Below, in pieces: positions 4,202-59,674 of a stretch of 64,000 nt of DNA. The first letter of the stretch is position 1. Each line of letters starts with the position of its first letter. Position numbers and translations under genes: made by a program. Source of the DNA: a virus; IMG/VR virus record IMGVR_UViG_3300045988_183539. One strand, given 5' to 3'. The notes beneath the pieces are model-generated. The model saw only the letters and a program-made list of their open reading frames with translations, was not told the DNA's origin and did no database searches.

Positions 4202-7200
4202 ATGAATAGTAAGGCAAATAATAGTAGTAATAATACAAAAAATCAGACACGACAGCAAAAAACTACTAATCAGAATAATACATCAAAATCATCAAATAAT
4301 AGTAATAATAGTAAACCATCTGCATCACAGACACAAAATAATGAAACAAAGACTTCAACTTCGTCTTCAACAAATTATAATACAAGACAGGCTGTAAATA
4401 CTATTGGCAGAGATATTTACAATTTAACAGATGGACGAATAAAATTAGGTTCATTTCAAGAAGGTGGAGGACGTGCTGGAGCTAGACAGGCTTTAGCTGA
4501 AACTGTATATAATTATACAACACAAGGTACAAGAGATAGAGAAAACAATTCCTTTTTTGATAATAAAATGAGGTTTAATAAAACAATAGCAGTTATGTCT
4601 GCTGTTGGTCATACAGCTAAAGAGAATGCTGTTATAAATACATATAATAATATTGATTGGAATAGTTCTAAAATACAGACCCAAATGACAAAAATGGGTA
4701 TCCTTTCTAATAACAGCCAGCAATACCTTAATAGCTTTTTAAGTTCTAATACTGTAGTTGTTCCTAATAATGAAATAAAGAATGTAAATGAAGACAAAAT
4801 TACATTAGGTGATTTAAAATTAAATAATTCACAAAAGGCTAGTTTAATAAATACAGGTAAGTTTACTTTTGAAGGACAAGAATATCATATAAAAGATAAA
4901 GAGTTGTCAGAAGTAAGAAAAGCCTATAATGCTGCAAAAATAGAAATAAAAAATAATAATAATATTACTAAAGCTCTTACAGGTAAAGATAAAGAATTAG
5001 TAATGCAGCAGATAAAAAGCAAACAGACAGATTATCTTAAAAAAATTAGTGTTACAGGTGGATTTAATGGTAGTTTAGCTTCTACTAAGAAAGAAATTAA
5101 AGCTATAGATTATAAGTTAGAGATATTAGAATGTAAATTAAAATCTGCTAATAATGCAACAGACTTACATAACTTTAAAAGCCAGATTGCAGAATTAAAA
5201 GATTATAAAGAGTCATTTATGTTATATAAAGAAACAGGAGCTATAACAGAAGACTTTGATAGAGGTGCTGGAAGAAAAAAATATGGCCGTTCTATAATTG
5301 CTCAAAATATCATTGGCAGTGATATGTATAGAGGAACTAAATTTATTCAAAATAGTAGTAAAGCTATTATTAGTGGTGCAAGATTAACAATTAAGACAAC
5401 AACAAAGGCTAGTGCTGGATTAGTTAGTGCAGCAACATATATTCCAAGAAAAACAAGTCCAAATTCTAAAGCAGGAATAATAAGCAATAATATTAATAAT
5501 AATGCACAGAAATATAAGAATAATATTAACGATAAGATAAGACATAAGACAAAAGAAGAAAAAAAAGCTCAGGCAAAAGAAAGAAAAGTTACTCATAAAG
5601 CAGAAGCTTTAGAAAAAAGAGAGAAAAGACTTGAAAGAACAGAAGCTAGAATTAATATTTTAAAAACAGGTAAATTAACTGATGCAGAAGAAAAAAGACT
5701 TCAAAAATTAACAGAAAAGATAAATAGTAAAAAAATAGTATCTAATAAAGAATTAAACGAATATAATGAGTTATTAAATAAAAAAGAAAAAGGTGTTTTA
5801 ACAAGAAAAGACCAGAAAGCTTTAACAAAACAGCAAAAAGTTTATAAAGCAAGAACAACATTATATAGTACTCCAGATAAAGTAAAAGAAACAGTAAAAG
5901 ATGGTTTAAAAAAATCTAAAGGTGTTGTTGTAAAAAAGGTAAAAACAACAAAGGCATATGATAAATATACACAGTTTAAAAATGGCAAATTCTATGGAAA
6001 TGCGATGAAAGTAAAAGGAAAGGTAAGAAATAGTAAGATTGGAAAAGCAAGTAAAGATATAAAATATACTATTTTACATCCTTTTAAAACTGTAAAAAAA
6101 ATAAAAGATATGATAATAGATAAGCCATTAATGTTCATTAAAAAGTATTTATTAAAAATCATTGGAACTGTTATAGCTTTATATCTTTTATTAATAGGTT
6201 TTGCTTTTATTATGTTATTACCTATATTAGGTATAGGTTCATTTTTTGACTCATTACCATCATCAACAATTTCTAATGAATTAGCACAAATAAATTATAT
6301 TCAATTAATTGTTAATGATACAGCTAATAATTTAGGTAAAGAACTTACAAAGACAGCAATAAAAGATGCGGAAACTCATTTTATATCAGAAAATGGAGCA
6401 GTTTCTTCTACAAAATATGATTGGAAGAAGAGTGTATCAGAAGGAAGTATAAAGCATATATGGGCTACAGAAGATTTAAATAAAGATGTCTGGGATAGAA
6501 CAGAACTTGCAGGAGTATCTGCTAATCTTTTACCTATTACAAGTATGATGCATTATAGATATAATCAATCAATTGATTTTGATAATTATTTAACTGCAAA
6601 AGCATATATATATTATATGTATGTAAGGTCACACGATACAGCCGCAGATGAAAATGGCAATATATATAGTTATGATACATTAGCAGATTGTTCAAACGAT
6701 AGTTTATATGTAACAAAACCTACATATGATATTGATAATAGTAAAGTAACAAGAGGAGTGGAAAGCTGTACTAATGTATATGTACACGGATATTCTTCCG
6801 ATTATAATAAAGCTATTAACAAAGCAAGGGCTGAATTAGGTGATTTTTTAAATATGGTTCAGAGTGCTTTAGGTATAGGACATCCAGATGGAACTAATGA
6901 AGATAATGGTGTATTTATAGACAAAAAACCTTATGATAGTAAAGGGGAATGTGACAACTATGAAGCATTTCAAGCTGGTGTAGGAAATAATTATACTAAT
7001 TGTGGAAAAGAAGAACACGACCATAATAAAGAAGGTTGTAGCAAAGCTTGGTATAATGGTGATGATATATGTACTATTGAGGAACATATACATAATGATG
7101 ATTGCTATATTCATAACAAAACATTTTTAGGTTATGATAATTGTGAATTTGGTGATATACACGAAGAAACAGCTGATTGTTATGAACTTCAATTTTTACC

Positions 7201-10576: not shown

Positions 10577-11443
10577 ATGAGAAAAATAATAAATAATTTT
10601 GTACAAATATCTATTCTGTTATGTTTTATTGTAATTTTTAGTTCAAATAAAATAAATGTATATGCTTCAGATGATATTCCAACAGTAACACTTGATGCTG
10701 GACACGATAGCTTTCATACAGGAGCAACAGCAAATGAATTATATGAAGAAAAATTAAATTTAATAATTACAAATTATTGTAAAGATTATTTAGAAAAACA
10801 TTCTAATATTATTGTGTATTTATCAAGGGATAATTTTACCTGTCCTTATCCAGACACACCATATAAAGATTGTAATTATGAAAGGTTAATAAAAGCAAAA
10901 GAAGTAAATACAGACCTTTTTTATAGCATTCATTGTAATTATAGTCCACACGAATATATGAATGGAGCTAGTGTTATAATTCCAAATACAAATTTTAAAC
11001 CATATTTTTATGAAGAAGGAAATATATTAGCAAATATTATAAAAAATAATTATAGTAATTTAATTCCTGTTACAGAAATATATACAAGAAATTCAGATGA
11101 AGATGAAGAAACAATAGATAATTTCTATCCAGATGAAACAAGGGCTGATTATTATAATGTAAATAGAACAAGTAAATATAATGATTTTTTAGGAATTATT
11201 GTTGAACACGGATTTCTTTCTAATACAAATAATGCAGAAATTTTAAAGAATACAGATATTTTAAAACAAATAGGTGAAGCTGATGCAAAGTCTATAATAG
11301 AGTATTTTAAAAATAAAGGATATGATTGTGAATTAGAATATATAGAACAAAAAACAACACCCGATATTGATAAAGTAAAAGATTTATTTATAAAAGAAAG
11401 ATACAAAAAATTCAAATTTTTTATAGAATTTTTAAATAAATAA
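10577..11443 (+). CDS. N-acetylmuramoyl-L-alanine amidase (Amidase_3/CwlD-like) with signal peptide
   Basis: N-terminal hydrophobic signal; motifs TLDAGHDSFHTGAT, SIHCNY, EHGFLSN typical of the Amidase_3 fold. Confidence 0.7.
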   Translation: MRKIINNFVQISILLCFIVIFSSNKINVYASDDIPTVTLDAGHDSFHTGATANELYEEKLNLIITNYCKDYLEKHSNIIVYLSRDNFTCPYPDTPYKDCNYERLIKAKEVNTDLFYSIHCNYSPHEYMNGASVIIPNTNFKPYFYEEGNILANIIKNNYSNLIPVTEIYTRNSDEDEETIDNFYPDETRADYYNVNRTSKYNDFLGIIVEHGFLSNTNNAEILKNTDILKQIGEADAKSIIEYFKNKGYDCELEYIEQKTTPDIDKVKDLFIKERYKKFKFFIEFLNK

Positions 11444-21989: not shown

Positions 21990-23105
21990 ATGGAAAATAC
22001 AAATACATCTTTAACATTAGATGAAATAATAGAAAAGAACAGAAAAGATTTATTTTCAGAATTAAATGAATTCTTAGATAATGAAAAGATAACAGATATT
22101 GAATGGGATGGCGAACATTTATGGATAACAGAGTTAGGAAAAGGCTGTTATCCTGTTGATAAAAAATTATCTATAGATTTTGTGAATAATTTAAGTATCA
22201 GATTATCAAATATAATGAAAACTAATTTTAATGCTTTAAACCCTATATTGGAAGCACATACAAAAGAATTAAGAATATCAATCTTTCACGAAAGCAGAAC
22301 TGGGGAAAAATCTATAACTATTAGGAAAATTCCTACAAATATAAGATATAACCACGAAAAATTAGTAAAAGATAATACAATCCCAGAAGAATTATTAAAC
22401 CTATTAGAAAATTGTGTTAAAGCACATTGTAATATAGTTGTTGGAGGAAGACCTCACGCAGGAAAAACAGAATTAGTTAAATACTTATCTAATTTTATAC
22501 CAGCAAATGAGAAAGTAGTGACATTAGAGGATAATGCAGAAATCCATTATAGAGAAATACATCCTAATAGAAAGAGTGTATCATTTTTAGTTGATGATAA
22601 AGTAACATATTCAGATGCTATTAAGGCTTGTTTGAGACATAATGCTGATTGGTTACTATTATCTGAAGCAAGAGGACCAGAGATTATTGAACTTCTTAAT
22701 GCACTTAGTACAGGAAGTTATTGTATGACGACAGTACACGTAGATGGAGCTAAAGACATTCCTGATAGAATGTATAATATGCTTAATAATAGTAGTATAA
22801 ATGAAAGATTTATCAATAACATATATCGTTATATGGATGTAGGAATAATAATAAAAGCTGATAAAAAAGAAAACAGAATTATATCAGAAGTTGGATTTTT
22901 TAACAGAGCAAATGTTAAGAATGAAGATGGAGAATATGAAATGCAGAACATTTATACACCTTTTTATAATACATTTGAAGGGTTAAAAGATAAAGATAAG
23001 TTACCTATAAATATCCAAAGAGCATTTGTAAGAGAAAATATTAAAAATCCATTTGAAAAACCAGAAATTACTGATGAAATAAAGGAAGTTTCTGTAAATG
23101 GTTAA
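21990..23105 (+). CDS. TadA/CpaF/VirB11-family secretion ATPase
   Basis: Walker A VVGGRPHAGKTE, Walker B/Asp box WLLLSEARGPE, 371 aa. Confidence 0.7.
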   Translation: MENTNTSLTLDEIIEKNRKDLFSELNEFLDNEKITDIEWDGEHLWITELGKGCYPVDKKLSIDFVNNLSIRLSNIMKTNFNALNPILEAHTKELRISIFHESRTGEKSITIRKIPTNIRYNHEKLVKDNTIPEELLNLLENCVKAHCNIVVGGRPHAGKTELVKYLSNFIPANEKVVTLEDNAEIHYREIHPNRKSVSFLVDDKVTYSDAIKACLRHNADWLLLSEARGPEIIELLNALSTGSYCMTTVHVDGAKDIPDRMYNMLNNSSINERFINNIYRYMDVGIIIKADKKENRIISEVGFFNRANVKNEDGEYEMQNIYTPFYNTFEGLKDKDKLPINIQRAFVRENIKNPFEKPEITDEIKEVSVNG

Positions 23106-26017: not shown

Positions 26018-27286
26018 ATGGAAAAAATAAAATATTCAGCTAGTGAAAAAAAGAATAGACATTTGTTATTTGAAACTAATAAAAATTTATTTATTACAGG
26101 AGCAGGAGGTACAGGAAAATCTACTTTTCTAAATGAATTTATAGAAAAGAACCCTAATACAATAGTAACAGCTCCAACAGGAATAGCGGCTGTAAATATA
26201 GGAGGAGTAACAACTTTTAATGCTTTTAGTATACCAATACCTTGTTTTGGAGCTACAACAAATAAACTGACTGAAGCAAAATTAAAGAAGATAATTATGG
26301 TTGATAATGTAATTATTGATGAAATAAGTATGTGCAGAGTAGATGCTTTTGTTTATATCACAAAGGTAATTAAAAAAGCTGAAAAGATAAAAGGTAAGAA
26401 GATAAGAATTATTGTTAGTGGGGATTTCTCACAGCTTCCTCCTGTAATTACAGATGAAGATGCTAAAATGTTAAAAAAATTTGGTTTTCATAAGTCTGGG
26501 TTGCCTTTTACTTGTAAAGAGTGGGAAAATTGTCATTTTACTACTATAGAGCTTACAGAAGTTAAAAGACAGGATAATCTTGAATTTATAGAAAACTTAA
26601 ATAAAGCCAGATTAGCAGATAAAAAATGTATAACATATTTTAATCAGTTTGTAACAGATGAAATTCCAGATGATTGTATTCATATATGTGGAACTAACGC
26701 AGAAAGTTCTAAACTTAATAAAGAATATTTGGACTCATTAGAGGGTATGCCATATGCGTATCAGGCAGTAAAACAAGGAAGAACTACAGGAGCATATGTA
26801 GATGATATTATTATTCTTAAAGATGGAGCAAATGTATATTTTACAGTCAATGATATATACGAGCATAAATATGTTAATGGAACATTTGGAAAAATACATA
26901 AATGTTTTAATGACCATATAGAAGTAGAAGTTGATGAAGAAATAATAGATGTTTACCCACACAGATATTCGGTTTATAATTATAAAATTATAAATGGAGT
27001 ATTAAAGAAAGAAGAAATTGGTTCAGTTTTACAAATGCCTTTAAAATTAGCTAAAGCAATTACTGTGCATAAATCCCAAGGCAAAACTTTTAATAAAGAA
27101 GTGTTTACACCTAAAATATTCGCAGCAGGACAGGCTTATGTTGCATTAAGCAGAGTAAGAAATCCTGAAGGTTTATTTTTAACAGAACCTTTACTTCCAG
27201 AACAATTAATGTCAGACAGAACAGTACTTAAATTTTATAAAAATAATTATAAATTTGAAAGTAATCGTAAAAAAACAGAAAAATAA
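26018..27286 (+). CDS. Pif1/RecD-family (AAA_30 + UvrD_C_2) DNA helicase
   Basis: ITGAGGTGKST Walker A, APTGIAAVNIGG, IIDEISM Walker B, TVHKSQGKTF, AAGQAYVALSRVRNPEGLF C-terminal motif. Confidence 0.75.
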   Translation: MEKIKYSASEKKNRHLLFETNKNLFITGAGGTGKSTFLNEFIEKNPNTIVTAPTGIAAVNIGGVTTFNAFSIPIPCFGATTNKLTEAKLKKIIMVDNVIIDEISMCRVDAFVYITKVIKKAEKIKGKKIRIIVSGDFSQLPPVITDEDAKMLKKFGFHKSGLPFTCKEWENCHFTTIELTEVKRQDNLEFIENLNKARLADKKCITYFNQFVTDEIPDDCIHICGTNAESSKLNKEYLDSLEGMPYAYQAVKQGRTTGAYVDDIIILKDGANVYFTVNDIYEHKYVNGTFGKIHKCFNDHIEVEVDEEIIDVYPHRYSVYNYKIINGVLKKEEIGSVLQMPLKLAKAITVHKSQGKTFNKEVFTPKIFAAGQAYVALSRVRNPEGLFLTEPLLPEQLMSDRTVLKFYKNNYKFESNRKKTEK

Positions 27287-31219: not shown

Positions 31220-32788
31220 ATGAGTATTGGAATATTTATAGCTGTAGTAGTTGTAGCTTTATTATTAATGAGTTATATAAAAGCACCAACAGATAAGGCT
31301 TTTATTGTATCAGGCTTAAGGAAGAAGCCTAAGTATGTAATAGGAAGGTCAGCACTTCGTATTCCATTTTTACAGAGAGTAGATAAGCTTGATTTAAAAA
31401 TGATTAGTGTTGATGTAAAAACTAAAGAGTCAGTTCCTACAAATGAATATATTAATGTAAATATTGATTCAGCAGTTAAAATTAAGGTTGGTTTATCACC
31501 AGATATGTTAGAAAAGGCAGCTAATAACTTCTTAAATAAAAATGATTTATATATTAGAGACCAGGTTGTTGATGTACTTGAAGGTAATGTTCGTGAAATT
31601 ATTGGGCAGATGAAGCTTGAAGAAATTGTTCAGGATAGAAAGTTATTTGCTGAAAAGGTACAGGAAAACGCTGCTCCAGATATGGAAAAGATGGGTCTTG
31701 AAATAGTAAGTTTTAATGTACAGAATGTTACTGATGAAGGCAATGTTATTGAAAACTTAGGTATTGATAGAGTAGTAAGTATTTCTAAGTCAGCACAGAT
31801 TTCAAGAGCAGAAAGTGAAAGAGATATTGCTGTTGCTAAAGCTAATGCTGAAAAACAGGCTAATGATGCAAGAATTGAAGCAGAAACAGCTATTGCAGAA
31901 AGAAATAACGAACTTGAAATTAAAAAGCAGGAGTTAAAGAAGGCTGCTGATATTAGAAAAGCTGAAGCAGATGCCGCTTATGAAATTCAGGAACAGGAAC
32001 AACGAAAGACTATTGAAATCACAACTGCAAATGCTAATATAGCAAAGCAGGAAAAGGAGATTGAACTTAGAGAAAAGGAAATTGCTGTTAAGGAAAAGAC
32101 ACTTGATGCTGAAATCCGTAAACAGGCAGAAGCAGAAAAGTATGCCGCACAGCAGAAGGCAGATGCAGACCTTTATTTAAGACAGAAGGAAGCAGAAGCA
32201 AAGCAGTTTGAAATTGTTAAACAAGCTGAGGCTAAGAAATCACAGGCAGAAGCAGATAGATTTGCTAAGGAACAGGAAGCAGAAGCTATTAAGGCACAGG
32301 GATTAGCAGAAGCAGAGAGCATTAAGGCTAAAGGTGTTGCTGATGCTGAAAGTATTAAGGCAAAGGGTATGGCAGAAGCAGAAGCTATGGAAAAGAAGGC
32401 AACTGCCTATGAGAAGTATGGTAAGGCTGCTATGACTGATATGATTATTAAGATACTTCCAGAAATGGCAGGACAGATTGCTAAACCTCTTGAAGCCATT
32501 GATAAGGTTACTATTATTGATGGTGGTAATGGTGAAACAGGGGTAGGTTCATTTAGTGGTAATGTTCCTTCAGTACTTGCAAAGACTATTGAATCTGTTA
32601 AGGAAACAACAGGATTTGACCTTACAGAGGTTATGAAAGCTAATACATATGATGCTAAAACAACTAAGAATGTTAATTTTACAGGACTTCCTAATGAAGT
32701 TAATGTAGATGCTTCTAATGTTTCTGATATAGAAGATGTGTTTGAAAATACTGATTTTGATAAGGCTATGAAAAAGCTTTCTGATTAA
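31220..32788 (+). CDS. flotillin-like SPFH/band-7 protein
   Basis: N-terminal TM helix, SPFH-like region, long Ala/Glu/Lys coiled-coil with EA repeats typical of FloT/YqiK. Confidence 0.7.
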   Translation: MSIGIFIAVVVVALLLMSYIKAPTDKAFIVSGLRKKPKYVIGRSALRIPFLQRVDKLDLKMISVDVKTKESVPTNEYINVNIDSAVKIKVGLSPDMLEKAANNFLNKNDLYIRDQVVDVLEGNVREIIGQMKLEEIVQDRKLFAEKVQENAAPDMEKMGLEIVSFNVQNVTDEGNVIENLGIDRVVSISKSAQISRAESERDIAVAKANAEKQANDARIEAETAIAERNNELEIKKQELKKAADIRKAEADAAYEIQEQEQRKTIEITTANANIAKQEKEIELREKEIAVKEKTLDAEIRKQAEAEKYAAQQKADADLYLRQKEAEAKQFEIVKQAEAKKSQAEADRFAKEQEAEAIKAQGLAEAESIKAKGVADAESIKAKGMAEAEAMEKKATAYEKYGKAAMTDMIIKILPEMAGQIAKPLEAIDKVTIIDGGNGETGVGSFSGNVPSVLAKTIESVKETTGFDLTEVMKANTYDAKTTKNVNFTGLPNEVNVDASNVSDIEDVFENTDFDKAMKKLSD

Positions 32789-32904
32789 TATTAAATATAT
32801 AATTTTGATTATAGGCACTAATTAATATTTTAGTTAGTGTCTATTTTTATATTTATATAAAAGATTGAAAATTTTTTTTACTTTAGAAAAATTAAAATAT
32901 ACTA

Positions 32905-32940
32905 TTTTTTATCTTTTTTACACTATTATATAAAACAATA
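32905..32940 (+). promoter_or_regulatory. promoter cassette family member
   Basis: TCTTTTTTACACTATTATATAAAACAATA. Confidence 0.4.
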
Positions 32941-32959
32941 AAAATTGAGGATTTATATT

Positions 32960-33847
32960 ATGAAAGATTGGATAAAAAATATTCATACCATTGATAAGAC
33001 TTGTGTAAATTCTGAAGGGGAATATTATAAATATACAGAATTTAACAGAAAGCCAATATCTTTATATATCGTTGTAACAAGAGATTGTAATGCCAGATGT
33101 CCTTTTTGTGAATATAGAGGAAAACTAAAAAAAATCAATATCAATAAATTTGAAGAAATTTTTATTGAGTTAAGTAAATATTATGATATTACAACAGTTC
33201 ATTTTACAGGTGGAGAACCTACCTTAGAATTAGATACAATTAATGTATTAAGCAAAGTCATAAAAGAAATTTCTCCTTTAACTAAAACAAGCGTTAACAC
33301 CAATGGAATATTCTTAAATGAATTGTCTAATATAGATACAATAGATAATATTGCTTTAAGCAGACACACTATTATAGATAAAGATAATTTTAATATTTTT
33401 AGAACCAATAATATCGCTACATATGAAAATATTTATAATAATAATTATAAGGAAAAAATTCATTTAAGCTGTAATCTTATAAAAGGATATATAGATAGTA
33501 GTGATAAAATATTAGAATATCTTGAAATGGCATCTAAATTAGATATTAATGATGTAGGTTTTGTTAGTCTTATGCATATAAATAATTATTGTGAAGAAAA
33601 TTTTGTAGAATTTAGTAATATAATTCCAAAGGAAAAGGATTTTTTTAATAAAACAAGAGATTATAAATGTATTAATAATAAAAATATAATTACTTGCAAG
33701 TGTGAAAATTATCTTTATAGAGCTAAAAATATGAATTTTATATCAATGTATCATAGATATGCTATTAAGAATAATGAAAAAGCAGATTTTCTTGTTTATG
33801 AAAACAATCATTTAAAACAAGGCTTTAATGGAAATATATTAATATAA
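32960..33847 (+). CDS. radical SAM enzyme
   Basis: CNARCPFCEY (CxxxCxxC) near the N-terminus and a GGEP motif (HFTGGEPTL). GAGGA RBS before ATG 32960 (track start 32945). Confidence 0.6.
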   Translation: MKDWIKNIHTIDKTCVNSEGEYYKYTEFNRKPISLYIVVTRDCNARCPFCEYRGKLKKININKFEEIFIELSKYYDITTVHFTGGEPTLELDTINVLSKVIKEISPLTKTSVNTNGIFLNELSNIDTIDNIALSRHTIIDKDNFNIFRTNNIATYENIYNNNYKEKIHLSCNLIKGYIDSSDKILEYLEMASKLDINDVGFVSLMHINNYCEENFVEFSNIIPKEKDFFNKTRDYKCINNKNIITCKCENYLYRAKNMNFISMYHRYAIKNNEKADFLVYENNHLKQGFNGNILI

Positions 33848-33862
33848 AATAAGGAGATAATA

Positions 33863-34201
33863 ATGAATAATATAAGAGAATATTTTTATGAGGTATATAA
33901 GAGAGATTGGATTAATACACATATATCCAATGAAAGATATATAGGGACTATGAATGAATATTATAAGGAAAAGAAAGATAATATAAATTATCCTGATTTT
34001 CCTTCATTTAAAGACTATATAGAAGAAAATGGTTTTGATTTTGGAGAAATTTATTGTAGTTATGATGAATTTTTGGATTTTGAATATCAACAGAAAAATT
34101 ATTGGAAAAGTTTAATTAATGATGAAGAGATTTATGGTGAATATTTAGAAGATTTAGAGATATTAAAAGAAGAAGAAAAAACGGATAATTTAGAAATATA
34201 G
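33863..34201 (+). CDS. hypothetical 112-aa protein
   Basis: AAGGAG RBS. Confidence 0.45.
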   Translation: MNNIREYFYEVYKRDWINTHISNERYIGTMNEYYKEKKDNINYPDFPSFKDYIEENGFDFGEIYCSYDEFLDFEYQQKNYWKSLINDEEIYGEYLEDLEILKEEEKTDNLEI

Positions 34202-34213
34202 AAAGGAAAAGAT

Positions 34214-34426
34214 ATGGAAGAAAATGTAACAGAAGAAATGATAGACCTGTTAAAAAAAGTAGCTGATTTATGTTGCAAGGCAAGTGAAGAAGTTTATGAT
34301 GATGATAAAGAAAATGGAACAGCAAATATATTAAATTTATGTGATAAGTTACAGGAAGCTATAGATGAATATGTTTTAGATTATGACTGTAAAAAAATAT
34401 TAGAAAATAATGAATTAGAGTATTAA
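34214..34426 (+). CDS. small acidic Cys-containing protein, paralog of 40936-41160
   Basis: EEMIDLLKKVADLCCKASEEVYDDDKENGTANILNLCDKLQEAIDEY aligns with QEMIDILKNISDLCYKASNEVYEDDDKEKGTAKILILCDNLNEVIDDY. Confidence 0.5.
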   Translation: MEENVTEEMIDLLKKVADLCCKASEEVYDDDKENGTANILNLCDKLQEAIDEYVLDYDCKKILENNELEY

Positions 34427-34454
34427 ACAATATATTATTACAAGGAGAAAAAAT

Positions 34455-34601
34455 ATGGAAAAGATTATTAAGGAATTAAAAGAAGCAGGATATGATTATG
34501 GAGTAGCTATTGCAACTAAAGCAGAAATTAAAGCTGGAGCTGATTGTGGTCAATTAAGTTTAATAGTTGAAAAGAGTTCAGACAAAGTGATGAACTATTA
34601 A
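34455..34601 (+). CDS. hypothetical 48-aa protein
   Basis: AAGGAGAAAAAATATG RBS; absent from the track because of size. Confidence 0.3.
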   Translation: MEKIIKELKEAGYDYGVAIATKAEIKAGADCGQLSLIVEKSSDKVMNY

Positions 34602-34617
34602 GATAAGGAGTTTTAAT

Positions 34618-35319
34618 ATGAAACATAATTCAAAAATGATTAATTTAGCACATAGCATATTAGGGACTGATAATAAAAACATTAATTGGAAAAAAATAGA
34701 CAAGCATTTAGATGAATATATAAAAACAATAAATAAAGTTCACACCATTAAAAATAAAGAAACAATTTTTTATATTGTAGATGATTTAAGGAATACTAAT
34801 TCAATTTCGGAAAAAACTAAGAAGATTGTATTAGAAACTTTAGATATAGATGAAAGTCTTTATAAAAATAGTATAACTAAAGACACTAATGATTTTGAAA
34901 GTTATACTTTTGATAGAAATACAAATATAAGTGATTCTGAAATAGATAAATATAAAGAGATAATTGAAGGTAATAATCATTCGGATATAAGAATTAAAAA
35001 TGAAGATATTCAGTCTGCTCATAATAAAAAATATTATGAATATGAATTAAAAGATTTTTTAAATGTATTTACTGATAATATAGAAGGAAATAATGCATTA
35101 AAAGCTTTAAGAGATGGTGATTTCGTTATAGGCGAAAATAAATATGAATGTAAGACAGGAAATATTTGCGGCACACTTTCAAAAGATTTTGTTGTAAAGT
35201 TTAAAAAAGATGATGAGCTTAGAGCTAAATTTTTAACTATCAATTGGACTAAAATAATTAACGAAGTAAACAGTATAAATAAAGAAAAACACAATGATGA
35301 TTTTGATTATGATTATTAA
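34618..35319 (+). CDS. hypothetical protein, paralog of 35361-35801
   Basis: Shared segment INWKKIDKHLDEYIKTINKVHTIKNKETIFYIVDDL...KKIVLETLDI versus IDWIKLNKNLNEYIETMSKVVNIKNKDSVYYLLTD...KKVIFRTLDI. Confidence 0.5.
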   Translation: MKHNSKMINLAHSILGTDNKNINWKKIDKHLDEYIKTINKVHTIKNKETIFYIVDDLRNTNSISEKTKKIVLETLDIDESLYKNSITKDTNDFESYTFDRNTNISDSEIDKYKEIIEGNNHSDIRIKNEDIQSAHNKKYYEYELKDFLNVFTDNIEGNNALKALRDGDFVIGENKYECKTGNICGTLSKDFVVKFKKDDELRAKFLTINWTKIINEVNSINKEKHNDDFDYDY

Positions 35320-35360
35320 TTATTTTATAAAAATAATTATATTAATATAAGGAGTTTGAT

Positions 35361-35801
35361 ATGAAACATAATATAAAGCAAATATCTTTTATGATAGCGT
35401 CTTTTAAAGATATTACTGATTCTTTTGGAGAAAATAAGAAATCTATAGAATTTTTTAAAAGGCAGGTTGAAGGTCTTGTTAATATAGGTCAGTTAAATTA
35501 TTTAGATGTTATTTTATTCTATAATATATTAGATATATATAATACTAATTTAGAAGAAATAGACTGGATTAAATTAAATAAGAATTTAAACGAATACATA
35601 GAAACTATGAGTAAGGTTGTAAATATAAAAAATAAAGATAGCGTGTATTATTTATTAACAGATAATAATAATATATCTAAGCAGACTAAAAAAGTTATAT
35701 TTAGGACATTAGATATAAAAGATGAAGATTATAAAATAAGTTCAAAGGATAATGATATATCTTTTGGTAGTTATGAAAAGAATAATTCATTTTTATATTA
35801 G
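35361..35801 (+). CDS. hypothetical protein, paralog of 34618-35319
   Basis: See above; GGAG RBS. Confidence 0.5.
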   Translation: MKHNIKQISFMIASFKDITDSFGENKKSIEFFKRQVEGLVNIGQLNYLDVILFYNILDIYNTNLEEIDWIKLNKNLNEYIETMSKVVNIKNKDSVYYLLTDNNNISKQTKKVIFRTLDIKDEDYKISSKDNDISFGSYEKNNSFLY

Positions 35802-36489
35802 AGATTGTATTAATGAACATACTAATGAATTAAGAGAAGATATTTTAGGTTCAAGAAAAGAAAGATGGATGATTGGTGTTAGTTGTATGAGTGGTTGTCC
35901 TGTAAGATGCCAGTTTTGTAATACTGGAAAATTAAAAAGGTATAGAAATCTATCTGCAAAAGAGATATATGAACAGGTTGTTTTTATATTAGACAAGCAT
36001 CCAGAGATAAAAGAGATTGATAGTAAGGAATTTAAGATTAATTATACAAGAATGGGAGAACCTTTTCTTAATATTGAAGCTGTAAAAGAAGCTATCACTC
36101 TTATAGACAATGAGCCAAGATTAAAGAATGTCAAGATACATCATTATATAAGCACAATAGGACTTAAAGGTAGTGATTTTAGTTTTGTAAAGGATAATAT
36201 TACTTTACAAATTAGCTTACATAGTCTTAATGAAGATAGAAGACACAATCTTATTCCTATAGATGGACTTATGAGTATAAAAGAACTTGGCGAAATAAGA
36301 ACAGAAAGTAATCTTAAGACAACTGTTAATATGACGCTTGTAGACACAAAAGACTTTGATATTGATATTATGAAAAAGTATTTTGACCCTAAGTATTTTT
36401 TTATTAAGCTTAGTCCTATTAATGAGAATGAGGTTAGTAAGGAACATAATATGGGTAAAGGTATTATTCATAGAGAAAATTTAATATAA
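35773..36489 (+). CDS. RlmN/Cfr-family radical SAM protein, trimmed form lacking the N-terminal domain and the C-terminal Cys-bearing tail
   Basis: GVSCMSGCPVRCQFCNTG...RNLSAKEIYEQV, TRMGEPFLN, ISTIGL and LQISLHSLNEDRRHNLIPI align with the RlmN core. No Cys after the cluster. Start uncertain (35752, 35773 or 35866). Confidence 0.6.
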   Translation: MKRIIHFYIRDCINEHTNELREDILGSRKERWMIGVSCMSGCPVRCQFCNTGKLKRYRNLSAKEIYEQVVFILDKHPEIKEIDSKEFKINYTRMGEPFLNIEAVKEAITLIDNEPRLKNVKIHHYISTIGLKGSDFSFVKDNITLQISLHSLNEDRRHNLIPIDGLMSIKELGEIRTESNLKTTVNMTLVDTKDFDIDIMKKYFDPKYFFIKLSPINENEVSKEHNMGKGIIHRENLI

Positions 36490-36608
36490 CATTTTTTTAT
36501 TATATCTTCTTAAGTTCTTATTTTTAGGATTTAAGAAGATATTTTTTTATATTCTTTTATTGTATTCTATCCCATAAATAGGGTATAATTAATTATAAGA
36601 GATTGAAT

Positions 36609-36698
36609 ATGAATAAATATATATTAATGCATAAAAATATTGAAGTAGCTTTAATGGATTTAGATGAAAATGATAGAAATGCAAAACCAATAAAATAG
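36609..36698 (+). pseudogene. truncated duplicate of the hipA-like N-terminus
   Basis: MNKYILMHKNIEVALMDLDENDRNAKPIK* versus the N-terminus of 39528 (MKDYILMHKNIEVALMKLDENDANSKPSK). Confidence 0.55.
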
Positions 36699-36790: not shown

Positions 36791-37003
36791 ACTTAATGAA
36801 AAAGTAGAAATATGTGTTTCACTAGAAAGGAGACATAACAATGTATAGAGTCGAATGGTTAGATATGGATGGAGAAATTAAGATAGTTAGAGGGTTTAAA
36901 ACAAGTGGAAAAATGGATTAGAACACACTGTTTTGATTTAGATTTTGAACATCCTATGGTGCTTTATGACGAAAAATAATGAAATGTCTTTGATTGGAAA
37001 GGA

Positions 37004-39075: not shown

Positions 39076-39510
39076 ATGTGTAATAATATTTCAAATAATA
39101 TAAAAGAATTAAGAGAAATGACAGGATTATCACAAAGTGAATTTGCTTCTAAATATAAAATACAAAAGAGAACCTTACAAAATTGGGAGCAAGGTATATC
39201 AAAAGCACCAGAATATTTTATAGACCTATTATCAAAAGATATTCTAAAGGCAAATGATATAGAAAAAATATACTCTATTATTGGAAAAAAAGGAAAATAT
39301 ATCTATAATGATTGTAAAGAATGTCTTATAGACGATAAAGGAAACGATATTAATATAAAAATACCTGATTTTGATAAGATAAACAAACATAACTTAGGTT
39401 TATATTGTGACTTTTTATTTGAAGACTATAAAAATAGTGTTGAAGATTTTATAAATCAATGTAAGGGAGATATTAAATCAGATATGATATGGACTACATT
39501 TGATGATTAA
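39076..39510 (+). CDS. XRE-family HTH protein (HipB-like antitoxin position)
   Basis: IKELREMTGLSQSEFASKYKIQKRTLQNWEQG HTH; immediately upstream of the HipA-like kinase. Confidence 0.6.
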   Translation: MCNNISNNIKELREMTGLSQSEFASKYKIQKRTLQNWEQGISKAPEYFIDLLSKDILKANDIEKIYSIIGKKGKYIYNDCKECLIDDKGNDINIKIPDFDKINKHNLGLYCDFLFEDYKNSVEDFINQCKGDIKSDMIWTTFDD

Positions 39511-39527
39511 TTGATGAAAGGAAGAAT

Positions 39528-40781
39528 ATGAAAGATTATATATTAATGCATAAAAATATTGAAGTGGCATTAATGAAGTTAGATGAAAATGATGCTAATT
39601 CAAAGCCATCAAAGATATATTTGAATGAAAAAGAACAAGACCATATTCCTATCGGAGCAAGAATGAATAATATTAAATTCATTAACTGGTGGCAGGATAG
39701 GGCAATCCCTAAAACAAGGCAGGGAGCAAGAACAGCTTTACAAAGATTAGGATATAGTTCAGTTACAAATGCTATGATAAATAATCTGGCTTTAAGTCTT
39801 AATGATTGTTATTGGATAAAACCCAGATATTCAGAATTAACTTGGGAAGAAGTTAATTTATTTTCAAATAATTTTGTTGATGCTTTTGGAGAACTCACCT
39901 TTAACCAAACAGAGGATTTAGATTTAAGAAAATATACTAAGTTTTTAAGTGCTGTTTCACAAGGAGAAGTTCAAAAGAAATGGTGTATAGATAAGGATAA
40001 TCATAGGTATCTTGTAAAAGGTAATTATGGCAATTCTTATCAACAAAGCATTAATGAAGTATTTGCCAGCAATTTTCATAAAGACCAAAATTTTAATAAT
40101 TACACACCTTATTATTTTTGCAATATTGAACTTACAAATAACAGAAAAGGATTAGGATGTTTTTCTTATAACTTTTGTAATGAAAATATTGAAAGTATTT
40201 CAGCTTGGGAATTATTACAAACTAGAAAGATTAAACAAAATGAAAGCTTATACTATCCTTTCAAAGATATATGCTTATCGCTAGGAATCAAAGAAGATGA
40301 TTTTGATAATTTTATTGATTATGAGATTTGTAGTGATTTTTTATTTACAAATTTAGATAGACATATGAATAATATAAGTATTTTAAGAAATCCAGACACA
40401 TTAGAAATATTAGGGTTCGCTCCTATATATGATACTGGAAATAGTATGTTTTATAATGTTTCTACTAATGAATTAAATAATGTTAAGTTAGGACAAGATA
40501 AAACACATTCATTTATAACATCAAAAGAAAATAGATTGCTAAAGTATGTTAGAAATAAAGAGATTATAAACATAGATAAAATTAATACTGATTTCTCAAT
40601 ATACGAAAAGGATATTTATGATGATTTAAGGATTTCTTTATTAAAAGAAAAATTTGAAAGAAAAATAGATTTGTTGCTGTCTTTTCAAAAAGGCAATAAT
40701 ATCTGGGAAGATAATTATAATAAAATATATATACAGAATTATAATAATTCAATAGAAACTGATGAAATAGACTTAGATTAA
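39528..40781 (+). CDS. HipA-family Ser/Thr kinase-like toxin
   Basis: C-terminal catalytic motif LDRHMNN (D-x-H-x-x-N) and FAPIYDTGNS (DFG-like) as in the HipA fold; 417 aa. Confidence 0.65.
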   Translation: MKDYILMHKNIEVALMKLDENDANSKPSKIYLNEKEQDHIPIGARMNNIKFINWWQDRAIPKTRQGARTALQRLGYSSVTNAMINNLALSLNDCYWIKPRYSELTWEEVNLFSNNFVDAFGELTFNQTEDLDLRKYTKFLSAVSQGEVQKKWCIDKDNHRYLVKGNYGNSYQQSINEVFASNFHKDQNFNNYTPYYFCNIELTNNRKGLGCFSYNFCNENIESISAWELLQTRKIKQNESLYYPFKDICLSLGIKEDDFDNFIDYEICSDFLFTNLDRHMNNISILRNPDTLEILGFAPIYDTGNSMFYNVSTNELNNVKLGQDKTHSFITSKENRLLKYVRNKEIINIDKINTDFSIYEKDIYDDLRISLLKEKFERKIDLLLSFQKGNNIWEDNYNKIYIQNYNNSIETDEIDLD

Positions 40782-40935: not shown

Positions 40936-41160
40936 ATGTTTAAAAAAAATGAAAATTTAAGAGAAAATAATAATAATATGACACAAGAAATGATAGATAT
41001 ATTAAAAAATATATCAGATTTATGTTATAAGGCAAGTAATGAAGTCTATGAGGATGATGATAAAGAAAAAGGAACTGCAAAGATATTAATTTTATGTGAT
41101 AATCTAAATGAAGTTATTGATGATTATATAGATAATTATGAAGATATAGAATTAGATTAA
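40936..41160 (+). CDS. small acidic Cys-containing protein, paralog of 34214-34426
   Basis: See 34214. Confidence 0.5.
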   Translation: MFKKNENLRENNNNMTQEMIDILKNISDLCYKASNEVYEDDDKEKGTAKILILCDNLNEVIDDYIDNYEDIELD

Positions 41161-41180: not shown

Positions 41181-41645
41181 ATGTTTGATAGATATAAAAG
41201 AAAAAAATATCCTGCTGGATATGTTGATTTATGTAAGTTTGTAAGATTTTATGATGACTGTAGTTATAATGAAAACGGCATAACAAATAAAGATAAATAT
41301 CATTATGAATATCGTAGTTTTTATTTACAAGGCGTTTCAAATGAAGATTGGACTGTTATTAGTCTTAGTCAAGAAAGAGCAATGGATAAAATTTTAAAAT
41401 TTATGTCTGAACATCCAGAAGCAAGAAAAACAGGTTACATAATAGACGAAGAAAGTAAAGAAAAAGATATTCGTTTAACGAAGGCACTTCATAAACTTAA
41501 TATAAATTATAAAGAAGCTTATGAATACAATAAATATTTGGATAATCAAATAATAGCTGCACTAGATATGGCACTAGAACGACAATATTCTTCTGATAAT
41601 GAGAATAATATGAAAGATAATGATGAATATGATTATGATAGATAA
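41181..41645 (+). CDS. hypothetical 154-aa protein
   Basis: ORF track. Confidence 0.45.
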   Translation: MFDRYKRKKYPAGYVDLCKFVRFYDDCSYNENGITNKDKYHYEYRSFYLQGVSNEDWTVISLSQERAMDKILKFMSEHPEARKTGYIIDEESKEKDIRLTKALHKLNINYKEAYEYNKYLDNQIIAALDMALERQYSSDNENNMKDNDEYDYDR

Positions 41646-57001: not shown

Positions 57002-59674
57002 ATGAATAGTAATAATATTGTTGAATGTATGTTTTTTGGTCAGAGATTTAATGAAAAGCCTTCTAAAATGGAAACAGGATATATACAGAAGAATATAACG
57101 ATTGCAAACATAACAATAGAAAATTTAGCAGAAGCTCTTGTTAATGGTGCTTCTTTTAGACCAAGCATATTAATAGGGGGACGTACAAAAGATGATTGGA
57201 AAAGACAACAGCTTTTTGGTTTAGATTTTGATAGTGGTGTTTCTATTGATGCATCATACAATAAAGCTATATCATTAGGTCTTATTCCTGTATTTATGTA
57301 TACTACATTTAGTCATACTCCAGAACATCACAAATATAGAATGATTTTTTGTACAGATAAAGTCATTACAGATATGGCTTTAAGAGACAAATTCCAAGCT
57401 ACTCTTATGGGTTTAATGGGAGATATAGATAAAGTATGTTTTAACAGAGATAGATTATTTTTTGGAGGAAAAGGTAAAGAAATACTTTTTCCTAATTTCA
57501 ATGCAAAACTTAATGCAGAAGAAATTATAGATAAGTATTGGAAAGATGATTTTGAAGTATATATAAAAGGACAAACTAAGTCAAAAAAAAGAAAATTAAA
57601 GAAAACAACAGAACCTAAGCAAAATAATTCATTTACTGTTATAAATTATGAACCAGATATTGATGAAATACCTTATGCAAGTTATCCAGTAAGATGTGTT
57701 ACCTTAGGTAATTTACGTTGTCTAAAAAAATATTATGATAGTATTATTTGGGCAGAAGGAATGCACAGAGAAAGATTTATTTTTATTTACTACAATTGTG
57801 TTAAATTACTTTATGGTTCAGATAGAGCTTATAAAGAATGTATAGAATTAAATAATAGTATGGAAGAACCATTAACAACATATGAATTAAAATCTGCAAT
57901 AATACATACAGATGAACATATGGAAAATAAAGATTGGTATAGAAAAGCATTACACGGAGATGGATGTTTTATTTTTAGACCTGAAACAATTATTTCAGAT
58001 AAATGGTTAAATATAGATGAAGAAACAGCTATAAAATGTGGATTTTTTGATAATAAAATAAGAAAAGAAAAAATAGAAGAAAATAAAAAGTTAGATACTC
58101 TTAGAGATAAAGAAGTAGCTAGATTATATTTATCTGGATTAGGTTATAAAAAAATAGTTAATAACCTTTCTAAGGAATATAAATGTAGTGCATCTACAGT
58201 TAAAAGAACTATAGAGAGATTAGGAATAAAAGAAAGAAATATTTCTTTAGAAGATATAGAGTTTAATGAAAATAAGAAGTATGCCAAACATTCGTTTGGG
58301 GTGCCGAAAGTGACTAAACTAGAAAAAGAAGTTTTTAAGGTAAAGTCTAAAAAAGAAATATCAGATAATAAAGAAGATAATATAGTATTTTTAAATGAAG
58401 ACTGTAAGAGATTATATGAAACGTCTAAAAATGCAGGGTCAGAAAGTAATATTAATGAACAGGAGATAGCTATTGAAACAATATTAAATAATCCTACAGT
58501 TAATTACTGTTTAAAAGGTAAAGCTGGTACAGGTAAAAGTTATTGTATTAATAGTTTATTACAGAGATTAACAGAAGAAGAAAGAAAAAAGACATTAGTA
58601 GTAGCTCCAACAGGAGTAGCTGCTTCTAATATTACATATACAACAGCTCATACAATACATTCAATATTTGAGTTATATACATTCGTACAAAGACAAGATG
58701 AACATATTAGGATACCTAAGATTTTATTAAATGTAGATAGAATTATCATTGATGAAATAGGTATGGTAAGAAAAGATGTATTTAATCAGTTAGTACGAAT
58801 TATTAATAATGCTCAAAAATTAACAGGTAATAAAATACAGTTAATATTAGCAGGAGATTTTGGACAGATTTCCCCTGTTGTTACAAAAGAAGATAAAACT
58901 GTAATGGATATTTATTACAAGGGAAGTGAAGATAAATATTTCTGTTTTGATAGTCCTTTATGGGATAGTTTAGATATTCATACAATAGTATTAAGAAATA
59001 ATCATAGACATAATAATGATGATTGCGATGAATTACAGAAAGAATTTATTAATATATGTGATGAGATTAAATTTGGAGCTATATCAGGATTAAAATGGTT
59101 AAATAATAACTTAAAACATACTGCTATAGAAGATGGAATATATCTTTGTGCTAATAATAAACAGGTTGATGTTTATAATAAAATGTATACAGATAAATTC
59201 ACAGATAAAAAGACATATAATGCTGTATGTTTTGGAATTACATCTGAAAGAAAATTACCTGTAAAGCTTAGTTTAGAATTAGCAGTAGGTATGAAAATAA
59301 TGACTCTTGTTAATACAAAGAAATACAAGAATGGTAGTTTAGGAGTAATAACAAAGCTTTATAAGGATAAGATTAAAGTAAAGTTAGATAATACAGGAAA
59401 AGAGATTACTGTAAAATATACTGAATTTAAGATAAATGAAGAAACTGATGAAGTATTATATCAGTTACCAATAGCTATAGCATATGCTATTACTGTAAAT
59501 AAAGCACAAGGATTAACATTAGAGAAAGTAAATATTGTTCCTGGCTTTTTTGCGGCAGGACAATTATATACAGCTATAACAAGAATAAAGAATGTACATA
59601 ATATTAGTATTATTGGTGAATTAAAAGAAACTGATTTAGTTGTAGATACAAGAGCATTAAGTTTTATTGCTTAA
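57002..59674 (+). CDS. replication protein: N-terminal AEP-type Prim-Pol + PriCT-like region + HTH, fused to a C-terminal Pif1/RecD-like helicase
   Basis: N-terminal LFGLDFDSG (DxD) and TTFSHTPEHHKY (SxH) primase-polymerase motifs; HTH ASTVKRTIERLG. Helicase motifs LKGKAGTGKSY, VVAPTGVAASNI, IIDEIGMV, ITVNKAQGLT, AAGQLYTAITRIKN. GAGAGGAG RBS. Confidence 0.7.
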   Translation: MNSNNIVECMFFGQRFNEKPSKMETGYIQKNITIANITIENLAEALVNGASFRPSILIGGRTKDDWKRQQLFGLDFDSGVSIDASYNKAISLGLIPVFMYTTFSHTPEHHKYRMIFCTDKVITDMALRDKFQATLMGLMGDIDKVCFNRDRLFFGGKGKEILFPNFNAKLNAEEIIDKYWKDDFEVYIKGQTKSKKRKLKKTTEPKQNNSFTVINYEPDIDEIPYASYPVRCVTLGNLRCLKKYYDSIIWAEGMHRERFIFIYYNCVKLLYGSDRAYKECIELNNSMEEPLTTYELKSAIIHTDEHMENKDWYRKALHGDGCFIFRPETIISDKWLNIDEETAIKCGFFDNKIRKEKIEENKKLDTLRDKEVARLYLSGLGYKKIVNNLSKEYKCSASTVKRTIERLGIKERNISLEDIEFNENKKYAKHSFGVPKVTKLEKEVFKVKSKKEISDNKEDNIVFLNEDCKRLYETSKNAGSESNINEQEIAIETILNNPTVNYCLKGKAGTGKSYCINSLLQRLTEEERKKTLVVAPTGVAASNITYTTAHTIHSIFELYTFVQRQDEHIRIPKILLNVDRIIIDEIGMVRKDVFNQLVRIINNAQKLTGNKIQLILAGDFGQISPVVTKEDKTVMDIYYKGSEDKYFCFDSPLWDSLDIHTIVLRNNHRHNNDDCDELQKEFINICDEIKFGAISGLKWLNNNLKHTAIEDGIYLCANNKQVDVYNKMYTDKFTDKKTYNAVCFGITSERKLPVKLSLELAVGMKIMTLVNTKKYKNGSLGVITKLYKDKIKVKLDNTGKEITVKYTEFKINEETDEVLYQLPIAIAYAITVNKAQGLTLEKVNIVPGFFAAGQLYTAITRIKNVHNISIIGELKETDLVVDTRALSFIA
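58285..58341 (+). repeat. copy C of the conserved ~55-nt element, embedded in the primase-helicase CDS at the linker between HTH and helicase domains
   Basis: AAACATTCGTTTGGGGTGCCGAAAGTGACTAAACTAGAAAAAGAAGTTTTTAAGG; encodes ...KHSFGVPKVTKLEKEVFKV... Confidence 0.7.

Follow-up and report, generated by a model that had tools for sequence, protein, structure and literature searches.

A radical SAM gene module with a putative split RlmN/Cfr-like enzyme and small acidic neighbors on a predicted giant conjugative element

Genes and boundaries of the radical SAM operon

We examined a 64,000-nucleotide (nt) stretch of IMG/VR virus record IMGVR_UViG_3300045988_183539 (the window, to which all positions given without a locus label refer), focusing on the gene set that begins with a radical S-adenosylmethionine (SAM) gene at position 32960. 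This gene, rSAM-A (32960-33847, 295 amino acids (aa)), encodes a protein with a predicted MoaA/viperin-like fold and is followed on the same + strand by genes for a 112-aa acidic orphan protein (33863-34201), a 70-aa acidic helical-hairpin protein (34214-34426), a 48-aa micro-protein that profile and concatenation alignments liken to the detached cysteine loop of an RlmN/Cfr-like enzyme (34455-34601), a 233-aa fragment of an accessory protein (34618-35319), a second accessory copy consisting of the N-terminal part only (35361-35801, a 146-aa open reading frame (ORF) with 40% identity to the 233-aa ORF over 95 aa), and rSAM-B, an RlmN/Cfr-like radical SAM core of 245 aa (35752-36489). An initial annotation of this locus had described the radical SAM gene, by its CNARCPFCEY and GGEP motifs, and the two small genes 3' of it. 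Both descriptions are borne out, the former by the motifs and a match to Pfam family PF04055 and the latter by coordinates, ribosome-binding sites, and isoelectric points (pI). The ORF for the 48-aa micro-protein was absent from that account.

Terminator-like hairpins on the + strand lie on either side of this gene set, one at 32811-32844 (a 15-bp stem followed by a T-run, located 3' of a flotillin gene) and one at 36502-36542, and these would mark the upstream and downstream boundaries of an operon. Three terminator-like sites were found, compared to 0.5 expected from shuffled sequences. The genes between the hairpins are separated by gaps of 12-41 nt and have AGGAG-type ribosome-binding sites; the gap is 15 nt between rSAM-A and the 112-aa gene and 12 nt between the 112-aa and 70-aa genes, and both small genes have their own AGGAG-type site, a strong one in the case of the 112-aa gene. 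Judging from this layout, positions 32845-36500 are predicted to form a single operon. Since the two hairpins enclose the whole gene set, the 112-aa and 70-aa genes would be co-transcribed passengers.

The rSAM-A protein contains TRDCNARCPFCEY, in which the CxxxCxxC motif of CNARCPFCEY falls at C43/C47/C50, and the motif FTGGEPT. These motifs are invariant in 34 homologues, and rSAM-A scores 47.6 bits against PF04055 (cut-off 29.5 bits), which places it in the radical SAM superfamily. The ORF opens at 32945 or 32960, and gene callers and homologues favor the ATG at 32960. Further cysteines are invariant in the alignment of the 34 homologues, namely C15, C171, and C246-x-C248. An AlphaFold (AF2) model built from these homologues (predicted local distance difference test score (pLDDT) 92) gave MoaA (2fb2) as its best full-length match in Foldseek (E 1.4e-10, template modeling (TM) score 0.63), followed by viperin-like enzymes (E ~1e-8, CTP-bound) and by peptide-modifying radical SAM cores. 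Likewise, a profile search of the PDB with rSAM-A ranked viperin-like enzymes first (E ~1e-14), the best NCBIfam matches are MoaA models, and there is weak profile likeness to HxsC, PqqE, and YydG/EpeE. Beyond PF04055, no curated family cut-off was reached: rSAM-A scores 53.2 versus 231 bits for NF001199 and 49.8 versus 284 bits for TIGR02666, both MoaA equivalog models, and 23.2 versus 450 bits for the viperin model TIGR04278, with no PADLOC pVip match. SPASM, twitch, and RRE domains were not detected with Pfam or NCBIfam.

Like MoaA and viperin, rSAM-A has, in its AF2 model, the overall fold, including the C-terminal beta extension, and it has the CxxxCxxC and GGE motifs. Unlike MoaA, its extra cysteines (C15, C171, C246, and C248) do not follow the auxiliary three-cysteine pattern, and its C-terminus reads GFNGxxI rather than ending in Gly-Gly. 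Unlike both MoaA and viperin, rSAM-A is found without a molybdenum cofactor (Moco) or antiviral gene context, no other Moco genes being seen among its neighboring ORFs, and it almost always adjoins a small protein with a cysteine-containing tail.

A conserved four-gene set and a putative split enzyme

Approximately 300 rSAM-A homologues were recovered by database search, many of them on contigs of 0.2-0.8 Mb, and tblastn located rSAM-A in the uncultured phages LR756501-3 and LR745206 (635-735 kb). When IMG/VR and GTDB genomes were searched with the single rSAM-A sequence, no loci were found, but an alignment-based scan did recover full-length relatives with 29-41% identity, almost exclusively on IMG/VR viral contigs, several of which are 150-425 kb long. 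Among 185,579 GTDB reference genomes there were only two full-length relatives, and one of them lies on a 425-kb contig that is also classed as viral in IMG/VR (L016 = L077). Therefore, the GTDB search lends no support to a bacterial or archaeal housekeeping role for rSAM-A.

The neighborhood that recurs around these homologues consists of rSAM-B (~262 aa), the accessory protein, rSAM-A, and a micro-protein of 43-48 aa. The accessory protein, 85-270 aa long, combines a helical N-domain with a tail at its C-terminus that follows the pattern DPCG..[Y/F]..(S/R)C and usually ends the protein. This four-gene set is present in L011 (rSAM-A 55% identical), in L012 (53%), and in at least ten IMG/VR contigs (33-41%) with lengths of 5.5-425 kb, several of them above 200 kb. 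Homologues of the 112-aa and 70-aa proteins were found in none of these loci. The four-gene module, which occurs in huge phages as well as in the giant conjugative element to which the window seems to belong, thus appears by comparison of these loci to be the ancestral content of the operon. Searches of Pfam, PHROG, and NCBIfam gave nothing above noise for the accessory protein, the micro-protein, the 112-aa and 70-aa proteins, or a 154-aa protein encoded further downstream.

RlmN and Cfr, radical SAM methyltransferases of adenine C2/C8 and the latter a clinically important antibiotic-resistance determinant, use a mechanism that needs two cysteines within one polypeptide, and in RlmN Cys355 is S-methylated and then turned into a methylene radical. 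They are represented by E. coli RlmN (PDB 3RFA/5HR7) and the NCBIfam models TIGR00048 and NF000424. rSAM-B matches the RlmN model TIGR00048 with an E-value of 2.4e-22, its score being 79.4 bits against a 290-bit cut-off, and the rSAM-B family profile aligns to residues 110-261 of E. coli RlmN (hhalign E 1.7e-13), indicating a homologous core. The micro-protein has the consensus IKxQLExAG(Y/F)D(Y/F)AVAIATxAEIKAGAACGQL(S/A)II and is the best-conserved gene of the set, since it is 50-90% identical in loci whose rSAM-A proteins are only 33-55% identical. Its profile aligns by hhalign to E. coli RlmN residues 329-359, including AACGQL (E 2.4e-4, probability 44%), a segment that in RlmN carries Cys355. 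HMMER, run with the micro-protein both as one sequence and as a profile against NCBIfam and PDB sequences, gave no RlmN match.

Because the match of the peptide by itself is weak, the case for a split enzyme is built on collinearity and on an unsplit homologue. The end of rSAM-B corresponds to approximately RlmN residue 325, and the micro-protein begins to align at residue 329. When core and peptide were concatenated for 15 elements, the concatenations were collinear with RlmN residues 71-372 (E 4.4e-21), and the same concatenations aligned with an E-value of 1e-37 to an unsplit 319-aa homologue from Stenotrophomonas phage ANB28, which ends in DDIGGGCGQLW. If the 48-aa ORF were instead an independent peptide, such as a precursor of a ribosomally synthesized and post-translationally modified peptide (RiPP) or a toxin, its AACGQL likeness to RlmN would have arisen by chance. 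The empty HMMER scans and the hhalign probability of just 44% would agree with this, but the alignment begins exactly at the rSAM-B stop and is collinear across the junction, the unsplit phage homologue has the same segment fused, the pair is shared by four or more groups of cultured phages that are unrelated to one another, and the peptide is held at far higher identity across loci than rSAM-A. We therefore regard an independent peptide as extremely improbable, and favor a split RlmN/Cfr-like enzyme.

Like RlmN and Cfr, this putative enzyme has the radical SAM core (in rSAM-B) and the C-terminal strand with its AACGQL loop (in the micro-protein). Unlike them, it is divided between two genes, usually with two other genes between, so that the motif with the methyl-carrying cysteine sits not on the polypeptide of the core but on a separate product of 43-48 aa. 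It also differs in lacking the N-terminal RNA-binding domain (residues 1 to ~70 of RlmN; the alignment starts at ~71) and in having an invariant glycine in place of the resolving Cys118. This position, seven residues before the cluster motif, is Gly in 16 of 16 split cores, whereas the unsplit ANB28 homologue has Cys there; some split cores have three cluster cysteines only. A further difference is its setting on phages and mobile elements, where it is linked to a Cys-tailed protein and another radical SAM enzyme. We considered the accessory protein as a candidate for the missing N-terminal domain of RlmN and rejected it (hhalign E ~0.5).

Core genes accompanied by a micro-ORF with an AACGQ(L/V/M) loop are also present in cultured phages, where all are annotated as hypothetical. 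An RlmN-like core is followed by a micro-ORF in the crAss-like phage Kehishuvirus tikkala (OQ198717; L165 4001-4923; core WEU69814 and micro-protein WEU69813; 61.5% identity, micro-ORF MEKEIKEQLEKEGYDYGVAIATEAEIKAQAACGQLASILENQE), in Moorella phage MTATph1 (L166 3998-4960), and in Pectobacterium phage Wc4 (L167 3501-4844), and in Vibrio phage D479 (L172 2501-3581) a single ORF contains two tandem copies of the Cys-loop unit. Unsplit 319-aa RlmN-like proteins, which have a cysteine equivalent to Cys118 and a GGGCGQLW tail as part of the same chain, are encoded by Stenotrophomonas phage ANB28 (L170 2974-3933) and phage BUCTxx99 (L171 2474-3433), and these unsplit genes sit inside tRNA gene clusters. 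In one record the unsplit gene is named "prohibitin family protein", apparently by mis-annotation. The PHROGs entry for the core reads "unknown function", and we found no description of a split or phage RlmN/Cfr in the searchable literature. Thus, the split RlmN/Cfr-like enzyme and its MoaA-like companion seem to represent a hitherto undescribed form of a known enzyme family.

The four genes do not always occur together. Five loci contain the accessory and rSAM-A pair with neither rSAM-B nor the micro-protein within ~6 kb, and in a sixth locus of this kind, L032, rSAM-A has no adjoining Cys-tailed gene. The module therefore has two halves. In three IMG/VR contigs without a nearby rSAM-B (164, 182, and 242 kb), an ORF of ~340 aa lies directly 5' of the accessory and rSAM-A pair (L026 4298-5296, L027 4590-5609, and L031 3878-4915); by eye only, its N-terminus is NadR-type nucleotidyltransferase-like.

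These loci bear on the question of what rSAM-A acts upon. It might be a stand-alone MoaA/viperin-like enzyme that uses GTP or CTP and is functionally unrelated to its neighbors, yielding a modified nucleotide for the nucleic acid of the element or for poisoning the host. The structural ranking (MoaA first over the full length, CTP-bound viperin-like enzymes next), the lead of MoaA models in NCBIfam and of viperin-like enzymes among PDB profiles, and the existence of rSAM-A loci with neither rSAM-B nor the peptide are all in keeping with such an enzyme. Nevertheless, its scores fall far short of the MoaA and viperin cut-offs, its neighboring ORFs include no other Moco genes, its near-constant neighbor is a protein whose C-terminal Cys tail is conserved, and in most loci it lies between the two halves of the split RlmN-like enzyme, so that we judge a stand-alone nucleotide enzyme to be unlikely. 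Because the Cys-tailed protein is a near-obligate neighbor, we prefer the accessory Cys tail as the substrate or partner of rSAM-A; this tail or, as the main alternative, a purine nucleotide is probably what the enzyme acts upon.

The copy of the module in the window differs from its relatives in several respects. The micro-protein reads GADCGQL, with Asp just before the cysteine, a position that is Ala in all relatives (GAACGQL). The accessory gene is present as the 233-aa and 146-aa pieces, while it is intact in L001, L007, and L173 (268-272 aa in L001 and L173). Compared with those intact versions, the 233-aa piece has lost its first ~45 aa (the N-domain) along with most of the conserved cysteines, and the 146-aa piece has the N-domain only and no Cys tail. 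At 245 aa, rSAM-B is shorter than its 260-268-aa relatives, with ~20 N-terminal aa missing and the next ~20 diverged. L173, for example, encodes an intact rSAM-B (7151-7948) together with its micro-protein (6142-6276). The same degraded arrangement recurs in L005, L006, L008, and L009, which come from several samples, and it is therefore not an assembly error. Thus, the RlmN half of the module looks as if it is decaying in the window while rSAM-A is intact. A frameshifted copy of a 48-aa gene (MYRVEWLDMDGEIKIVRGFKTSGK...) lies at 36841-36990, and its counterpart is intact in the sister locus L001 (4492-4638).

The small acidic proteins and the surrounding element

Given that the initial annotation had proposed the two small proteins as partners of the radical SAM enzyme, we compared the interval between rSAM-A and the micro-protein gene across related loci. 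In L011 this interval is 41 nt and has no small genes. In L173, an 821-kb scaffold with an rSAM-A that is 83% identical, the interval contains a 70-aa gene that is 97% identical and no 112-aa gene, and in the window and its closest relatives both genes are present. This series indicates that the 70-aa gene was inserted first and the 112-aa gene later, and we infer from it that both insertions between rSAM-A and the micro-protein gene took place in the lineage of the window only. The proposed partnership does not hold up, as neither small gene is present in any locus whose rSAM-A is 55% identical or less.

A specific form of partnership, in which one or both of these small proteins would serve rSAM-A as substrate or chaperone in the manner of a RiPP-like precursor and maturase pair, draws on the co-transcription of the small genes directly downstream of rSAM-A, the four cysteines of the 70-aa protein, the weak profile likeness of rSAM-A to the peptide-modifying enzymes HxsC, PqqE, and YydG/EpeE, and the retention of the 70-aa gene at 97% identity in L173. 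However, of the four cysteines only C43, which is part of an "LCD" motif, is invariant among the relatives that make up the family of the 70-aa protein, members of that family elsewhere do not stand beside radical SAM genes in the contexts examined, and SPASM, twitch, and RRE domains were not detected in rSAM-A. The absence of both small genes from the more distant rSAM-A loci speaks against it as well, and the accessory Cys tail, which accompanies rSAM-A in almost all loci, is the better substrate candidate. We consider a RiPP-like pair to be very unlikely.

The initial annotation had also pointed to a paralog of the 70-aa protein at 40936-41160 on the + strand, and protein and DNA comparisons agree: the 70-aa and 74-aa proteins are 65% identical over 54 aa (E 1e-21), and their genes are 81% identical over 153 nt, with the DNA identity stopping at the edges of the coding core. 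When the + strand ORFs of 40 aa or longer were compared across the 64-kb window, just three paralog pairs emerged, and this is one of them. The proteins are strongly acidic, with pI values of 4.05 (70-aa), 4.11 (74-aa), and 4.23 (112-aa). The ratio of nonsynonymous to synonymous substitution rates (dN/dS) between the paralogs is ~0.45, and positive selection between them is therefore unsupported. A 63-aa metagenomic protein, P0003, has an N-terminal half of the 70-aa type and a C-terminal half of the 74-aa type, which indicates that the two paralogs have recombined or undergone gene conversion.

Profile searches with the 70/74-aa proteins recovered 56 representative clusters that share a core of ~50 aa, VTxEMKxLLKxIADLAxxASxEVYDDDxENGTxGILxLCDxLxxKIDxYL, which has no match in Pfam, PHROGs, or PADLOC. 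By comparison, the 112-aa protein has only two near-identical matches among 5.8 billion proteins and no family in Pfam, NCBIfam, PHROG, or PADLOC. The 70/74-aa proteins thus do have homologues outside this element. The AF2 model of the 70-aa protein (pLDDT 86.7) is a helical hairpin (H7-26 and H36-67), and Foldseek searches with this model gave nothing significant in the PDB or BFVD (best E 1.6 and 0.84, respectively). Members of the family stand alone (50-76 aa) or are fused to other domains at either end; one fusion from Anaerostipes hadrus has a weak LPD16 match (24.8 bits, Pfam cut-off 27). In the contexts examined, the members are found on mobile elements, several of which can be assigned to gut Firmicutes, within arrays of small co-oriented genes that include single-stranded DNA-binding protein (SSB), DUF932, DUF2786/DUF7168, LPD24, DUF3849, and DUF7336 genes. 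In A. hadrus CZAU01000013 (L163), two hairpin-domain genes (6001-6540 and 7808-8401) lie 1.3 kb apart with SSB and DUF7336, so duplication within an element recurs.

The polyvalent proteins of conjugative elements and phages carry small accessory LPD domains (Iyer et al. 2017, PMC5512222). The hairpin family resembles these domains in occurring alone or fused to small domains and in belonging to same-strand arrays of small genes. It differs from them in that the hairpin domain is missing from Pfam, PHROGs, and PADLOC and the LPD16 match lies under the cut-off.

The idea that the small acidic genes recur beside enzymatic genes fares poorly. No radical SAM or HipA-like gene was found in the family contexts examined outside the lineage of the window, and searches for homologues of the 112-aa and 154-aa proteins beside other family members were negative. 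Within the window, the 74-aa gene does lie downstream of a HipA-like gene (39528-40781; 417 aa), starting 154 nt after it, as had been described. This gene forms a pair with a helix-turn-helix (HTH) gene (144 aa; the pair spans 39076-40781, + strand). The label of kinase is borne out in part: the pair matches the PADLOC candidate-defense model PDC-M03A (E 1.4e-15), whereas the protein stays below the Pfam HipA_C cut-off (21.6 versus 30.5 bits). The constant neighbor of the 74-aa gene in this lineage is instead the gene that always follows it, which encodes a 154-aa protein of no known family (41181-41645, + strand). Upstream, HipA-like genes are found in L005 and L008 and other genes in L001 and L007. 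Because it is absent from the sisters L001 and L007, the HTH and HipA-like pair is a variable cargo cassette and provides context for the 74-aa gene rather than a conserved partner. A 29-codon remnant at 36609-36698 (MNKYILMHKNIEVALMDLDENDRNAKPIK*) resembles the N-terminus of the HipA-like protein encoded at 39528 (MKDYILMHKNIEVALMKLDENDANSKPSK...), which suggests a trace of a lost second HipA-like copy and of past recombination.

Small acidic proteins of mobile elements invite comparison with Ocr and ArdA, and a further alternative is that the 70/74-aa and 112-aa proteins are anti-defense factors, either DNA mimics or immunity inhibitors, that are expressed on entering a new cell. Their small size and strong acidity (pI ~4.1), the duplication within one element in both the window and A. 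hadrus, the conjugative nature of the window, the arrays with SSB, DUF932, LPD24, and DUF3849, and the fusion of one member to a weak LPD16 match are points in its favor, as is the finding that the leading regions of plasmids are enriched in anti-defense genes (PMC11541004). Like Ocr and ArdA, the 70/74-aa proteins are small and strongly negative, but they have no sequence or fold likeness to them: in the comparison that the initial annotation had proposed, the 70-aa model resembles no Ocr, ArdA, or anti-CRISPR fold, nor any other solved or viral structure in the PDB and BFVD. Unlike the Ocr and ArdA dimers, the predicted two-helix hairpin of ~50 aa cannot alone mimic a stretch of B-DNA, its core being far smaller than known DNA mimics. 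The lack of matches in Pfam, PHROG, and PADLOC, the paralog dN/dS, which gives no sign of an arms race, and the lack of any family for the 112-aa protein also count against it. On balance we doubt that these proteins are anti-defense factors; such a role would be a speculative possibility, and one limited to the 70/74-aa family.

The locus lies in a region of ~25% GC in which nearly every gene is on the + strand. A metagenome scaffold of 469,594 bp (ERZ28576021, COST17-1 scaffold_1), likewise of 25% GC, carries an identical copy of the 70-aa gene; nearly all genes of this scaffold are on one strand, and its GC skew is persistently positive. The window encodes a VirB4-like conjugation ATPase of the CD1110 family (~35% identity over 95% of its length to versions from Firmicutes conjugative plasmids), which supports the mobile-element setting proposed in the initial annotation, as well as a VirB11/T2SSE-type ATPase and a cell-wall hydrolase; examples of these genes lie at 749-3217, 21990-23105, and 10577-11443. 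Ten large ORFs of the window were examined for phage structural proteins, and none was found. Given the conjugation ATPases and this negative result, the locus is therefore placed by its gene content in what appears to be a giant conjugative element that shares genes with huge phages and that may be a plasmid, an integrative and conjugative element (ICE) in a small chromosome, or a phage-plasmid. In near-identity DNA searches, the 30-44 kb region had no match among plasmids and a single 677-bp match among phages, inside the flotillin gene. Searches of the window for tRNA genes and Rfam families gave no match.

Other genes of the window include RuvC, flotillin, and two PIF1-type helicase genes (26018-27286 and 57002-59674) whose products are 32% identical over 405 aa, the latter having a 480-aa N-terminal extension. 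A flotillin or SPFH/Band-7 gene lies directly 5' of the radical SAM module in the window (31220-32788), in L173 (3316-4902), and in L165 (2455-3672), and this linkage may be conserved across the window, its 821-kb relative, and the crAss-like phage.

Proposed chemistry and meaning

Taken together, we think it probable, though far from certain, that the small genes are late passengers of the operon and that the module proper consists of rSAM-A, the accessory protein, and a split RlmN/Cfr made up of rSAM-B and the micro-protein. Several points weigh against this. The micro-protein by itself matches RlmN weakly by hhalign and not at all in the HMMER scans. The loci that have rSAM-A with neither rSAM-B nor the peptide imply that the two halves of the module may be functionally separable. 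The decay of the copy in the window is read from sequence alone, and the degraded arrangement recurs in several samples. Finally, the 70-aa gene is stable in the operon, being 97% identical between the window and L173 where rSAM-A is 83% identical, and it may have a lineage-specific functional link to its neighbors.

In the mechanism that we propose, rSAM-B and the micro-protein would together reconstitute an RlmN-like active site. The cysteine of the micro-protein would be S-methylated by SAM, and a 5'-deoxyadenosyl radical would convert the methylated cysteine to a methylene radical that attacks an adenine. The adenine would probably belong to tRNA or rRNA and possibly to DNA; an RNA target is hinted at by the unsplit phage homologues, since these sit inside tRNA gene clusters. 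Given that the resolving Cys118 is replaced by an invariant glycine, the product would have to be released by a thiol acting in trans, for which a second micro-protein or the accessory Cys tail are candidates, or else the micro-protein would be consumed stoichiometrically. rSAM-A would act on the accessory Cys tail or on a purine nucleotide. The 70/74-aa hairpins, which nothing links to radical SAM chemistry, would bind another protein and in this way serve mobile elements as accessory factors expressed in new hosts.

One version of this chemistry, to which we give a low probability, makes the micro-protein (~43 aa) a consumable, stoichiometric co-substrate rather than a part of the catalyst, the resolving cysteine having been lost and rSAM-A serving to prepare or recycle the Cys-tailed partner. 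Two outcomes would be possible under it. In one, a nucleic-acid modification would be freed by a thiol in trans from the accessory protein or a second micro-protein. In the other, the micro-protein would become methylene-bridged to an adenine of host RNA or DNA. The tandem duplication of the Cys loop in Vibrio phage D479 fits either a consumable peptide or a two-thiol mechanism.

For the small proteins, these results are a caution that small acidic genes adjoining an enzyme gene can be recent passengers and not partners, and they make the 70/74-aa hairpin family a defined candidate for screens of mobile-element accessory genes. For the RlmN/Cfr family, the relocated and lost cysteines, the second radical SAM enzyme, and the Cys-tailed protein indicate a different chemistry or a different target. 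The split system might be used in host takeover, in self-protection, or in tRNA or DNA modification. Since cultured phages carry the pair of core and micro-protein, among them Kehishuvirus tikkala, which grows on Bacteroides cellulosilyticus, as well as Wc4 and MTATph1, the idea is directly testable.

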